Part shown: positions 7,981 through 41,340 of the stretch, piece by piece
Layout of the letters: the number at the start of each line of letters is the position of its first letter
How positions within the stretch are numbered: position 1 is the stretch's first letter
NCBI GenBank assembly: GCA_951406725.2
Contig: OX597831.1
Location: forward strand, 30,194,001 to 30,258,000
Direction of reading: 5' to 3'
DNA length: 64,000 nt
Source of the DNA: Octopus vulgaris
Taxonomy: Eukaryota
Made by a program: the position numbers and the translations under genes
Notes under the pieces: model-generated
Told to the model about the DNA's origin: nothing
Database searches by the model: none
Seen by the model: only the letters and a program-made list of their open reading frames with translations

Positions 7981-8691
7981 TACTCTTTACTCTCTCTTTT
8001 ACTCTCTTACTTGTTTCAGTTATGTGACTGTAGCCATGCTGGAGCATCACCTTTAGTCGAGCAAATCGACCCCAAATCTTTGTAAGCCTTGTACTTATTC
8101 TATCGGTCTCTTTTACCGAACCGCTAAGTTACGGGGACGTAAACACACCAGCATCTGTTGTCAAGCGATGTTGGGGGCGGGGACAAACATAGACACACAA
8201 ACATATACACACACACACACACACACACACACACACACACACACACACATATATATATATGTGATCTTTCAACATGTGATCTCTTGAGCACCACCAGCAA
8301 AACTATTTTTTTCTCTGTCTTCCCTTCTTGGGATCTTTCCTTCTCCTTGTTTCCGACGAAGAGCTCCGCTCGAAACGTTAAACCCTCCTTCCCTTCTTTC
8401 CTGAGCGTCAATAATACTTTAATTGTTCCACGTCCTCGCGTTGCTGTGTTTTTTTCTCTTTTTTTCTGTGTTTTCTTGTTTGGATTAACTATATATATAT
8501 ATATATATATATATATATACATATATACGACGGGCTTCTTTCAGTTTCCGTCTACCAAATCCACTCACACGGTTTTAGTCGGCCCGAGGCTATAGTAGAA
8601 GACACTTGCCCAAGGTGCCACGCAGTGGGACTGAACCCGGAACCATGTGGTTTGTAAACAAGCTACTTACCACACAGCCACTCCTACGCCT
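7981..8691 (-). mobile_element. tRNA-derived SINE family A (CORE-like), with nested insertion
   Basis: Head ggcgtaggagtggctgtgtggtaag (A box) and gggttcagtcc (B box), ccttgggcaagt core-like segment, internal TA/CA microsatellite, gagtaa-type tail; multicopy in the window. Confidence 0.85.
8259..8490 (+). mobile_element. Short hammerhead-bearing repeat (Penelope pLTR/retrozyme-like), nested in the (TA)n of a SINE
   Basis: gttt CCGACGA a gagc tcc gctc GAAAC GTT aaac at 8349-8383; shared cctgagcgt..taatac segment and T-rich tail ending in (TA)n. Confidence 0.6.
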
Positions 8692-9496
8692 ATATAGTTA
8701 GAATACTGCAGCATCTGGTTTAGTTTTTAACTGAGCAACATAGGACTTTCTATAGGACAATGAAGCAGATGAGATTTTATTTACTGAACATGGAATCACG
8801 AATGCCAAAAATCCGTATGTGGTTCTGTTATATAACCCAAGGAATGATATTAAGATTTTTTTTTACAGTCTGCGAAAGATATTCGAGCTCAAAACAACAT
8901 CTGAGTAAGAGTGAATCGTTGAACGAAGACAGAAAATCGGAGTTTAACTTCTGACACAATGAAATGGTTTATATTATAACACCGATGCGTTCATGGGAAT
9001 AGGTTATTCAAATATTTGCTTTGTTGAAAATTGAAACAGAGGCAACACACTCGTTTATACAAGGCAAAAGCATGCGAAACGGGACATTCCATAAAAGTTT
9101 CGCATGCTTTTTGGATGGTTTTAGAGATTTTTATTGACGTAAGGATTAAATCTTTTGTATGTGACTTCTTCTCCATTAAATATATTAGTAATTTCCATAT
9201 TTAGAGAAATCATCGATATTATTAGATGGATTAGTGCTGTTCAGCGAAATCTGGAATACGAGAAAAGAGGTGATTGGCTGCGATAGCATGATTTTATCCA
9301 CAGGAAAGTTTGTACGGGAGTTCAGTTTGTGAATCTGAACTTTTTACTACAAAGACTAGTATGTGAAGTTTTCATATTTTCGTACTTTGTCAGATTTTCA
9401 CCCTTCATCATTTCATGTTCATTGAATGTAACTTCAACACCATTTGGAAACTCAATATTGCAACCAGAATCTTTCATTGTTACCGTTTACTCTTTA

Positions 9497-9904
9497 TTAT
9501 TTACTCTTTTGCTTGTTTCAGTCATTTGACTGCGGCCATGCTGGAGCACCACCTTAGTCGAGCAAATCGACCTCAGGACTTATTCTTTGTAAGCCTAGTA
9601 CTTATTCTATCGGTCTCTCTTGCCGAACCGCTAAGTGACAGGGACATAAGCACACCAGCATCGGTTGTCAAGCAATGCTAGGGGGACAAACACAGACACA
9701 TAAACATACACACGCACATATATATATATATACTTATATACTTCGGGCTTCTTTCAGTTTCCATCTACCAAATCCACTCACAAGGCTTTGGTCGGCCCGA
9801 GGCTATAGTAGAAGACACTTGCCCAAGATGCCACGCAATGGGACTGAACCCGGAACCATATGGTTGGTAAGCAAGCTACTTACCACACAGCCACTCCTGC
9901 GCCT
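9497..9904 (-). mobile_element. SINE family A
   Basis: Closely similar to the 7981-8691 copy without the nested insert. Confidence 0.85.
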
Positions 9905-10169
9905 ATTGTTCACTAATTTCGCGAAAATGAAGCAAGAAACCAGCCCAGTTAAGATGTTTTCGTTTCTCCAGCTTCATATTCATAGTAAGCTGTAGTTATG
10001 TGACTCCATTTCAAAATGAAGAAAGCACCCGCGACAAGCTCTGTCAGCTTTCTTTAACAGAGTGAACGTTTGTTGGAAATTGACAAGAAGCTCCATATTC
10101 CCGCCATCACAAGGAAAATTAGTATGCGACAGATCGCGAAATGAGTGATGAATTATTTCTTAGTATTTC

Positions 10170-10585
10170 TTATGTCTTTATTGCCCACAAGGGGCTAAAC
10201 ATACAGTGAGCAAAGAAAGACAGACAAAGGTATTAACTCGATTACATCGATCCCAGTGCGTAACTGGTACTTAATTTATCGATCCTAAAAGGTGAAAGGC
10301 AAAGTCGACCTCGGCGGAATTTGAACTCAGAACGTAACGACAGACGAAATACCTATTTCTTTTCTACCCACAAGGGGCTAAACACAGAGAGGACAAACAA
10401 GTACAGACAAAGGGATTAAGTCGATTATATCGACCCCAGTGCGTAACTGGTACTTAATTTATCGATCCCGAAAGGCTGAAAGGCAAAGTCGACCTCGGCA
10501 AATTTGAACTCAGAACGTAACGACAGACGAAATACCGCTAGGCATTTCGCCCAGCGTGCTAACGTTTCTGCCAGCTCGCCGCCTT
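10170..10585 (-). mobile_element. SINE family B, partial head-to-tail dimer with 14-bp target-site duplication
   Basis: Head ggcggcgagctggcagaaacgttag and gagttcaaattcc-type B box; TSD tttcttagtatttc at 10156-10169 and 10586-10599. Confidence 0.85.
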
Positions 10586-38084: not shown

Positions 38085-38885
38085 TTGGACGACGACGACG
38101 ACGACGACGACGACGATGGTGATGATGGTGGTGGTGGTGTTGGTGGTGGTGATGGTGATGACGGGGGTGCTAGTGTAGACGATGAAGCGAACGACGACGG
38201 CGATGACTGATGAAGATAAATGCAATGATGATGATAATGAATACCATCATGATGATAATTATGATGATGATGATGATGATGACGATGATGACGATGATGA
38301 CGATGACGATGATTAATAATGATGATGATGCGAACGTCGACGACGATGGCTAATGATGATATGTGCAATGATGATGATTATGAATACCACCATGATGATG
38401 ATGATGATGATGATGATGATGACGATAATGACGATGACAATGATAATAATGATGATGATCATGATTATGATGATGATGGTGGTGGTGGTGATGATGATGA
38501 CAGTGCTGCTAATGTCGATGATGATGCGAACGACGATGATGATGACTGATGATGATGATGATAAATGCAATGATGATGATAATGAATACCACCATGATGC
38601 TGTTGGTGATGATGATGTTGAAAATGATGATGATGATGATGATGATGATGATGATGACGACGACGACGATGACGACAACAACGAAGTTGGCGATGACGGT
38701 GATGGTGATGGTGATAATGATAATGATAAATATAATGATGATAAGAATGACCACGATAGCGATATTTATGGTATTGATAACGATGGGGACTACGACGACG
38801 ACGGCGATAATGATGATGGTGATGATGATGATGATGATGATGATGCTGATGATGATGATGATGATGATGATGATGATGACGAATG
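38085..38885. repeat. (GAT/GAC)n microsatellite field with recurring 40-bp motif
   Basis: tgcaatgatgatga..atgaatacca.catgatg recurs three times. Confidence 0.95.
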
Positions 38886-39254
38886 AATGAAATAGATACA
38901 AATATTTAACTTCCTGTTCTGAATTTTATATGGAGCTGAGGAATTGTTAAGCGTTCGGGGAATTAATCTAATGTATAAACGCGCTGGTGTGATGTTGCAA
39001 AGAGGAAGTGACTGGCTAAAAGGGAGATGGAAGGGGGGAAAAAAAGGGATAGAACGAAAGAAGAGAGAGAGAACAAAGAAAGAAGGGGGGGAGAGAAAGA
39101 GAGTAAAGAAGGAAGGGATCGAAAGGCGAAAGGAAGAAGAAGAAGTATAAGGGAAAGAGTGATTAAAATATATGATACATGATTGGCTTTCAGCGACATC
39201 TAATTTGTAATGTTGCGGAAGAATACTAATGGATGTCCATGCAAAGTAAATGCA

Positions 39255-39750
39255 TATATTTATGTATATATTATATATATATATATATATATATATATAT
39301 ATATATATATATATATATATATATATATATATATATATATATATATATATTTATTATATATATATATATATATATAATATATATATATACATATATATAT
39401 ATATATATATGTATGTATGCATGTATGTATGTATATGTATATATATATTCATATATATATTTATATATATATATATATGTATGTATGTATATGTATATAT
39501 ATGTTCATATATATATTTATATATGTTCATATATATATTTATATATATATATATTTATATATGTTCATATATATATTTATATATATATATATGTATATAT
39601 GTTCATATATATTTATATATATTTATATATATATATGTCCATATATATATGTATATATATATATATATATATATATATATATATATATATATATATATAT
39701 ATATATATATATATATATAGACATATATATACATATATACATATACATAG
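39255..39750. repeat. Long (TA)n-derived tract
   Basis: One of many TA/CA/GA tracts in the window. Confidence 0.95.
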
Positions 39751-41040
39751 ATATTATAAGTTGGTGTGTATGCGGGTGACACTATTAACAATTGCATACA
39801 TAAACACAAAATTACATAAAAACATACACACGCGCGTGCGCATCTACATATATTTACTATATGTGTGTTTGTGTGTGTGCGTGTGTGTAAAGCATGTATG
39901 CGAATGTTTGGTTAGTTTGTGGAGCTGTGGATGTACACAAGGAAGTGGATTTTAGTATGCGTAATGAAAAGATAATACATTTCTACTAAACCATTAGAAT
40001 ATAATTGAACAAGATGTGTGCGTGTGTGTGTGAGAGAGAGAGAGTGTGTGCGTGAGTGTGTGTGCTTGTGTGTGTATGCGTATGGGTGTGTAAAGTCGGT
40101 CTGGCATGCTATAAACTGCATTCTTCTCTCACTACATCTTCAATATGGTCCTGGGAGCTTAATTGTAATGAAGAATCAACGCCAAAGTTGCATGACATCC
40201 ACTTCACGTGGATACATGTTGTGTGCACTACAGAGGAATTTGGATACATTCTTGTACAAATGATTTATGTTAAAAAAAATATTCAAATGTCTGATGATTC
40301 TGAAATTTGGTTAATTTGAAATAAATTTGTTCTAAAATCGAAGAATTGATCCCACTAATTTGATAATCCTTGAGTCTAAGACATCACTCACACTTTTGTC
40401 TATCGGAAAATATTTTTTCTCTATAGCAGGTGAAGAATTCTGAAGACATAACTGTGAGCAAATTTTCAACACAAGATTGAAATTATCCTGTATTGTTTGT
40501 TTTGCTGTCATGATGTTGATATATAAGTATACATACAAACATACGTACAATATCTATCTCTCAATCTATCTTTCTATCTATGTATCTCTCTCTCTCTCTC
40601 CCTATATATATGTATATATATATATATATGAATAAATAAATGGAGTTTAACGCAGGTGTAAGTCAAATATTTTTACTTTCGACACATGTTTCCACTGATA
40701 CTATTCAAAAGAATAAATGGTATATATATATGCAGAGAAATATATGCCATGTCTTTATTGACATTTACTAATTACGTCATCCTATGGAGGCGAAGACAAT
40801 TCTAAGAAACCAAGAATGTATGTCGCATGGTATTTGATATACCTGTATTTGTCTATGTTGATCAAATACACGCTACTGGTCACACTGAGTTCTCTTAAAT
40901 CGTGGCTGTGTGGTAAGAAGCTTATATGTATGTAAGGAGTTATATATGTATGTATACATATATATATACATACATACATACATATATATGCTATATATAT
41001 ATATATATATATATATATATATATATATATATATATATAT

Positions 41041-41340
41041 AGGGAAGCTTTATGAAAATAGACAAAAGACGAAGGCAGGTGGAAAACAAACAAACAATTG
41101 TATTAGTATGGCGCTCAGGAAATATAAATAAAACAAGTCTTTAACGTTTCGAGCCTACGCTCTTCAACAGAAAGATACACAGAGAAAAAAAAACACAGAA
41201 AGAAGGAGAGAAAAAATTGTGCGTGCAGTAACTAACGAATCAACATGGCGATCTGATTTCGGCCAGAAGTCAAAGATCAAACATGAGACGCGAGAGCGAA
41301 ATTAGGGGAGATAATAGGGTTGAATGACCTACTCGAACAT
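41041..41340 (-). mobile_element. Short hammerhead-bearing repeat, copy 4 (sense to the host gene)
   Basis: Minus strand tcttt CTGTTGA a gagc gtag gctc GAAAC GTT aaaga at 41175-41138; abuts (TA)n. Confidence 0.65.

Follow-up and report, generated by a model that had tools for sequence, protein, structure and literature searches.

We analyzed a 64,000-nucleotide (nt) window of the Octopus vulgaris genome (contig OX597831.1 of assembly GCA_951406725.2, positions 30,194,001 to 30,258,000 of the forward strand; position 1 is the first letter of the window). Most of it is spanned by an adenylate cyclase type 1-like gene, and inside this gene lie four copies of a repeat that carries a putative minimal type I hammerhead ribozyme. 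Hammerhead positions are numbered here per the core as written in PMC7151607. The host gene and the repeat copies are:

4492..56739, minus strand: host gene, adenylate cyclase type 1-like, 11 exons, residues 351-1849 mapped, except 470-492
8260..8489, plus strand: copy 1, canonical A6 with C at U4; divergent sister copy
11417..11643, plus strand: copy 2, U6, A7, A17
19870..20099, plus strand: copy 3, U6, C7, C17; a U-G wobble in stem II and one broken stem I pair
41041..41554, minus strand: copy 4, U6, U7, U17; flanked on both sides by (TA)n tracts

The pattern GAAGAG N3-12 GCTCGAAAC matched at 8358, 11527, and 19977 (plus strand) and at 41146-41165 (minus strand), and none of 100 shuffles gave any match, confirming the four homologous elements with a shared motif that a first-pass annotation of this DNA had described. 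A relaxed hammerhead descriptor, tuned with the four copies already known, returned the same copies and one unrelated motif at 36342 (minus strand), against a mean of 0.06 and a maximum of 1 match in 200 shuffles. When the four-copy alignment was searched against the window with nhmmer, no fifth member was detected at E ≤ 10. Copies 2 to 4 are 64-77% identical to one another, and copy 1 is 53-57% identical to them. All four copies are solo, with 3-21 kb between them. They have in common a 3' end, placed by eye, that lies 95-110 nt past H17, and their 5' ends are unequal. Copies 1 to 3 are ~230 nt long and copy 4 measures at least 295 and perhaps 513 nt, so that the ~250-300 bp given earlier fits the minimum for copy 4 and overstates the other three. 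Within copy 4, positions 41042-41335 are multicopy; positions 41336-41554 are candidate element sequence only, and 41336-41456 was skipped as repeat in the run alignment. Copy 2 has a possible 8-nt target duplication (11401-11408 and 11646-11653). It also contains, at 11446-11469, a perfect 24-nt inverted copy of its upstream flank (11337-11360), which the other copies lack and which looks like a templated insertion.

Sequencing runs extended the family beyond the window. Part of the copy 2 locus (query 10600-12600) was present in 20 of the 24 listed runs, which came from 10 studies. No RNA run was listed among them; X4 and X15 are RNA by conjecture only and do not count as evidence of expression. 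Four of the 24 were aligned to copy 4 (41042-41456) at 80% likeness, and three of these runs, with two organism labels, yielded 7,820, 756, and 213 aligned contigs. Summed contig depth, which is not a copy number, peaked over the core (41140-41167); in run X9 it was about half of this over the 3' tail, and it fell to about one tenth at 41238-41307, in the 5' extension. The depth over this extension indicates that the extra 5' sequence of copy 4 belongs to the family. The repeats are thus a multicopy family, as had been proposed. Their density in the window, which was picked because copies are present, is 62 per Mb (95% interval 17-160) and would correspond to about 50,000-450,000 copies in 2.8 Gb. 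In other collections, all 43 loci obtained (17 from metagenomes, 18 viral, and 8 from prokaryote genomes) were chance-like, with a best nhmmer E of 0.015; a separate metagenome scan gave 0 loci, and phage records gave no match.

The motif and a conserved block downstream of it are located as follows:

8349..8383, plus strand: minimal type I hammerhead motif of copy 1, C3 at 8353, H17 at 8379, putative cleavage after 8379
11518..11553, plus strand: minimal hammerhead motif of copy 2, C3 at 11522, H17 at 11549
19968..20003, plus strand: minimal hammerhead motif of copy 3, C3 at 19972, H17 at 19999
41138..41175, minus strand: minimal hammerhead motif of copy 4, C3 at 41170, U6 at 41167, H17 at 41143; 5-bp stem I
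41112..41121, minus strand: invariant 10-nt block TTCCTGAGCG, 14-21 nt 3' of the putative cleavage site

The cores of copies 1 to 4 read CCGACGA, CTGTAGA, CTGTCGA, and CTGTTGA, with T, A, C, and T at H17. After the core, all copies have an extra A and then, in order, a stem II of 4 bp, GAA, ACGT, H17, and a stem I of 4-5 bp. The canonical core (C3 U4 G5 A6 N7 G8 A9 / G12 A13 A14, A15.1-U16.1, H17) is complete in no copy, the only deviations being U6 in copies 2 to 4 and C4 in copy 1; these letters are the ones reported in the first-pass annotation. The extra nucleotide between 9 and 10.1 and the G10.1-C11.1 pair are found in 4/4 copies, as is the palindromic ACGU at 15.2-16.2. Because this palindrome has no loop 3, stem III can form only as a dimer, in agreement with the earlier assignment to the minimal type I hammerheads of Penelope-like elements (PLEs). 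For stems I and II, in a structure drawn from the same sequences, 31 of 32 cells were paired, against 19-47% when the structure was slid. A type II topology using a downstream CUGA was rejected by inspection, as no G8 A9 follows it. The TTCCTGAGCG block is common to all four copies, its other sites being 8398-8407, 11564-11573, and 20016-20025 (plus strand).

We compared the motif with published systems through the portions of the cited sources covered here. The consensus of metazoan PLE minimal hammerhead ribozymes (min-HHRs) is U-rich upstream and has a short stem I, CUGANGAH, a G-C first pair in stem II, GAAAN, a palindrome, NUH, and AU-rich sequence (PMC4209133). The octopus motif agrees with this consensus everywhere except at position 6. 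An extra nucleotide, G10.1-C11.1, and a palindromic 15.2-16.2 are consistent features of metazoan PLE min-HHRs, mollusc examples included, which occur mostly singly and are tied to truncated PLEs (PMC4209133). The octopus copies resemble them in being type I with a short stem I, the extra nucleotide, G10.1-C11.1, and a loopless ACGU, and also in their U-rich 5' and AU-rich 3' flanks, their mostly solo occurrence, and the variable families per genome. They differ in U6 in three copies, in a stem II of only 4 bp, and in the invariant downstream TTCCTGAGCG block (PMC4209133). Thus, the extra A and the loopless stem III, which the first-pass annotation had counted as non-canonical, are already published PLE hallmarks, and U6 is the only part of that claim that departs from them. 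Since no copy has the complete min-HHR core, we file the family as a variant of the min-HHRs, which it would resemble in its working and from which it would descend. It is not filed as a retrozyme.

It is very improbable that the motif is a hammerhead look-alike, that is, a conserved DNA-level signal (promoter or protein site) of a repeat resembling a short interspersed nuclear element (SINE). Such an origin would be compatible with the Rfam results: the window had 0 matches at the gathering level, to hammerheads or to any other model, and copy 4 alone had 0 matches at E ≤ 10. The folding scores, which were not significant (see below), would fit it as well. Among the best 150 of 313 window matches to Rfam at E ≤ 5, nearly all were microRNA models on microsatellites. 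However, the PLE consensus is matched by all 11 core positions but one, by the extra nucleotide, by both stems, and by the palindrome, and copy 1 has the canonical A6 together with a compensatory stem I pair. Moreover, no tRNA was found in the window, and copy 4 contained no match to pol III A or B box patterns.

Conservation is concentrated in the motif. Invariant columns make up 24 of 30 core and stem columns against 50 of 160 flank columns in the four copies (Fisher p = 8e-7), and 28 of 30 against 77 of 160 gap-free flank columns in the U6 copies 2 to 4 (p = 1e-6). Within the 36-nt motif of the U6 copies, four of six changes fall at N7 and H17 (p = 1.3e-4; 0.009 if loop 2 is taken as free); of the remaining two, one is a wobble and one is disruptive. 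This pattern, seen in three sequences, is the main support for a kept function. U6 itself looks like an inherited, branch-level trait and not like decay. In the contigs, no position at 41132-41174 had a second letter at ≥5% in any of the three contig runs, and X9 had 17 such rows elsewhere. U6 is the majority letter among copy-4-like contigs with two organism labels. The N7 and H17 letters are identical within each U6 copy: A/A in copy 2 (11528/11549-region), C/C in copy 3 (19976/19999), and U/U in copy 4 (41166/41143). With n = 3, this match may be due to chance; copy 1, with A6, has C/U.

On balance, we lean toward the following reading. The four repeats would be 5'-shortened 3' ends of a PLE or of a non-coding passenger; A6 was replaced by U in one branch, and in the source elements the motif is probably still a slow, dimer-dependent self-cutter. 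The motif, the common 3' end, the unequal 5' ends, the TA-rich sites, U6 in three copies, and the conservation pattern are the parts of it read directly from the copies.

Less probable, though to be taken seriously, is the same PLE origin with a U6 branch that is a dead ribozyme. A non-autonomous master would have lost cutting and still have been amplified, and the block would have been kept by descent or through recognition by a PLE protein. Changes at position 6 are deleterious (PMC3088659, PMC7151607). Loop 2 (GUAG) and the TTCCTGAGCG block, neither of which is needed for catalysis, are also invariant in the U6 copies, and the contig core is so uniform that N7 and H17 likewise show no variant at 5%. 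With U6, UGUU can also pair with AACG, and the fold predicted for copy 4 contains this inactive hairpin. Naiads amplify without canonical hammerheads (PMC8557442). In contrast, the changes within the invariant block hit exactly the two positions that are free in hammerheads, G does not occur at H17, and the one change in stem II leaves a wobble pair; there is no known reason for a protein-recognition site to follow such a pattern.

Deleterious position 6 changes, the invariance of loop 2 and of the TTCCTGAGCG block, and the contigs' failure to confirm free-site variation at N7 and H17 all weigh against a U6 branch that still cuts, and they are joined by further results. The sample is four copies that were first noticed through their cores. 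Contigs lose rare variants and cannot capture A6 relatives that have diverged as far as copy 1. In X22 (raw DNA reads, with about 3 in 100 read; 1,934 million letters; species label the same as that of the best-matching run), 0 of 19 aligned reads lay on the core, all 19 being on the T-rich tract. The stem I covariation claimed in the first-pass annotation was not significant: it amounts to a single G-C/C-G swap in copy 1, a level matched by 140 of 500 shuffles. Overall, the four sequences contain one compensatory pair and one wobble, and copy 3 breaks one stem I pair. Monomer folds were not more stable than those of shuffled sequences (z from -0.8 to +1.8), and the ACGU duplex contributes only -1.7 kcal/mol; cofolding cannot represent a double hammerhead. 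Published PLE min-HHRs cleave weakly even as dimers (PMC4209133), and 8 of 9 Xenopus dimers were without cleavage (bioRxiv 10.64898/2026.07.22.740005). As to the origin, we saw no PLE open reading frame (ORF) next to the copies, no tandem of the pseudo-long terminal repeat (pLTR) kind, and no neighboring copy that is inverted and 5'-truncated. Before the copy 4 core lie 385 nt of low-complexity sequence, with no PLE protein recognizable by eye, and the family had no motif match in the examined part of the Octopus Naiad/Hydra consensus set (PMC8557442).

The insertion sites are consistent with a PLE. Tracts of (TA)4+ adjoin three of the four copies and make up 8.8% of the window (p = 0.003), which bears out the previously claimed preference for TA microsatellites. 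Copy 4 has a (TA)n tract on either side, and copy 3 follows one. Copy 1 interrupts another interspersed repeat at the (TA)n tract inside it; the two halves of that repeat (7998-8215 and 8505-8693) are contiguous in an uninterrupted repeat near 9464-9906. The stronger claim of a TA/CA microsatellite at every copy holds for these three and fails for copy 2, which has only short TATATTAA on either side. A (TA)n bias is known for the endonuclease-positive (EN+) PLE clades Neptune, Hydra, and Naiad (Craig et al. 2021, PMC8557442), which include Hydra-1_Obim and Naiad_Obim/Ovul of Octopus, and the octopus family is like these clades in its 5' truncation and insertion into (TA)n. As judged from the copies, its fixed 3' end, variable 5' truncation, and (TA)n preference are EN+ PLE traits. 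In addition, the octopus element Hydra-1_Obim carries a sense hammerhead near its 3' end (2403 of 2507), as the family does; its hammerhead differs in sequence and has a stem III of 4 bp (PMC8557442), and this difference in sequence rules out identity of the two. In the O. vulgaris genome, 190 PLE families together account for 6.83% of the sequence (PMC13282606 supplement). No PLE reverse transcriptase or GIY-YIG ORF was seen within the window, where the Pfam scan covered 8 of 131 ORFs and where truncated copies would lack one.

We regard it as unlikely that the copies are scattered monomers of a non-LTR (long terminal repeat) retrozyme, with a 230-300-nt unit that is tandem elsewhere in the genome and is cut and circularized. 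The family is like non-LTR retrozymes in being non-coding, of 200-350 nt, with a type I hammerhead, a link to PLE pLTRs, and dispersed monomers (PMC7229834; bioRxiv 10.64898/2026.07.22.740005). The ~230 nt of copies 1 to 3 all fit the unit size (PMC7229834), no ORF is attached to the copies, and both dispersed monomers and an origin in PLE pLTRs are known for retrozyme families (bioRxiv 10.64898/2026.07.22.740005). However, retrozymes are defined by tandem arrays and circular RNA and have mostly canonical hammerheads, whereas the octopus family is known from solo copies; the known circle-forming retrozymes have canonical hammerheads, and the minimal ones are assigned to PLEs (PMC7229834). No head-to-tail tandem of the family was found within the window, and copy 4 extends farther 5' with multicopy sequence. 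No go-back joint was detected in the three contig runs, contigs being weak evidence for this purpose; the only joint was a 45-nt skip in one contig. Nothing thus came out in support of the small circular RNAs and retrozyme-type tandems suggested by the first-pass annotation.

Under the PLE reading that we prefer, the cycle would run as follows, by analogy with PLE biology (PMC4209133, PMC8557442). Transcription of a source element in partial tandem would yield an RNA with two motifs, whose ACGU palindromes would pair to form stem III, and cleavage after H17 would trim the RNA. The PLE reverse transcriptase and GIY-YIG endonuclease would then copy it into (TA)n, starting at its 3' end and in most cases breaking off early. 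The solo copies in the introns, including the sense copy 4, would be inert: as monomers they would not cut, as was found for a single min-HHR (PMC4209133).

The four motifs and the fifth hammerhead are all intronic in the cyclase gene, copies 1 to 3 in antisense and copy 4 and the fifth motif in sense orientation. The latter was absent from the first-pass annotation:

36298..36348, minus strand: unrelated hammerhead with a canonical CUGAUGA core, 5-bp stem II, 12-nt palindromic stem III, and 6-bp stem I

It is a type I motif with a single copy within the window. In the cyclase pre-mRNA it has sense orientation, with an exon ~380 nt downstream of it, and a (TAGA)n tract is ~110 nt away. Its stem III palindrome could close as a hairpin, and stem I extends past an internal loop. 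It scored 14.4 bits against Rfam Hammerhead_3 (cut-off 48.5), and in the best fold predicted for it (z = -2.2) stems I and II are formed while the core is mispaired. This hammerhead is likely the end of another PLE or of a retrozyme.

The long minus-strand last exon of the host gene is 100% identical to the protein adenylate cyclase type 1-like [Octopus vulgaris], in line with the cephalopod host named earlier. This exon (4492-7581) encodes ~1,020 residues, nearly all of them a low-complexity tail past the catalytic domain; it is 73% identical in Argonauta, and most other mollusc matches cover only ~15%. The window also contains three or more further families of interspersed repeats. One of them consists of two parts, has a CA/TA tract inside it, and occurs at 9464-9906, 16982-17520, 37177-37648, and 48945-49387. 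A SINE-like family occurs at 7661-7854, 10169-10591, 16125-16913, 32218-32427, 52098-52266, and 60354-60525, with a 183-nt tandem at 10184-10536. A ~390-nt repeat family with 84-96% identity occurs at 33253-33640, 49665-50049, and 54075-54410. Fragments of non-LTR retroelements at 44402-45765 and 13815-14147 adjoin (TAA)n tracts, with a Pfam RVT_1 match at 45084-45506; they may resemble Dong/R4.

The novelty of the family lies in position 6. A6 is present in 56 of 56 rows of Fig. S3 of PMC4209133, where the search descriptor required A6, and CUGA in 34 of 34 rows of File S2 of PMC8557442, where the searches required CUGA. Neither A6U cleavage data nor a natural U6 core was found in the literature covered; Lunse et al. 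2017 (dimeric PLE variants) lies outside this scope and may contain U6. Among the matches listed for the string CUGUUGA, the only paper concerned an engineered ribozyme. Literature on octopus hammerheads, Penelope, Neptune, and SINEs held no description of the family; the Zenodo O. vulgaris repeat library, PMC4209133 supplement file 1, and part of the PMC8557442 archive lie outside its scope and may hold it. A natural case close to it is the hammerhead of phage Bcep176, which has a pyrimidine at position 6 (A6C) and cleaves slowly in Mg2+ and well in Mn2+ (PMC3088659, PMC7151607). That hammerhead is a single phage motif with C6 and measured cleavage, whereas the octopus motif has U6, belongs to a high-copy animal retroelement, and is known as sequence only. 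A bolder and less probable proposal is that a high-copy branch has long been propagated on a cutting U6 hammerhead. It would then be the first A6U ribozyme family from nature that is under selection; its metal preference might be shifted like that of A6C, N7 and H17 would change together, and the TTCCTGAGCG block would act as an off-switch. A helix between this block and GCUCGAA would compete at about -3 kcal/mol with stem II at -3.9 to -6.1; the off-switch idea is weak because this helix appears in the best fold of copy 1 only.

U6 is the only remaining novelty of the family, the rest being mostly known, and a U6 branch beside an A6 sister would be a modest one, a putative variant of a known self-cutting RNA. 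Otherwise, this would be one more PLE hammerhead family, of a kind known since 2014 from many animals, molluscs among them (Cervera and De la Pena 2014, PMC4209133). The role of PLE hammerheads and the weight of their weak cleavage in vivo are a standing question in the field, for which a genome that has an A6 branch and a sister U6 branch offers a natural experiment. A cutting U6 would lengthen the list of tolerated cores and mean that searches with a fixed CUGA undercount ribozymes; with a true cutting U6 family, such descriptors would have missed tens of thousands of motifs. If U6 is dead yet constrained as a hammerhead, the fold would have a job besides cutting.

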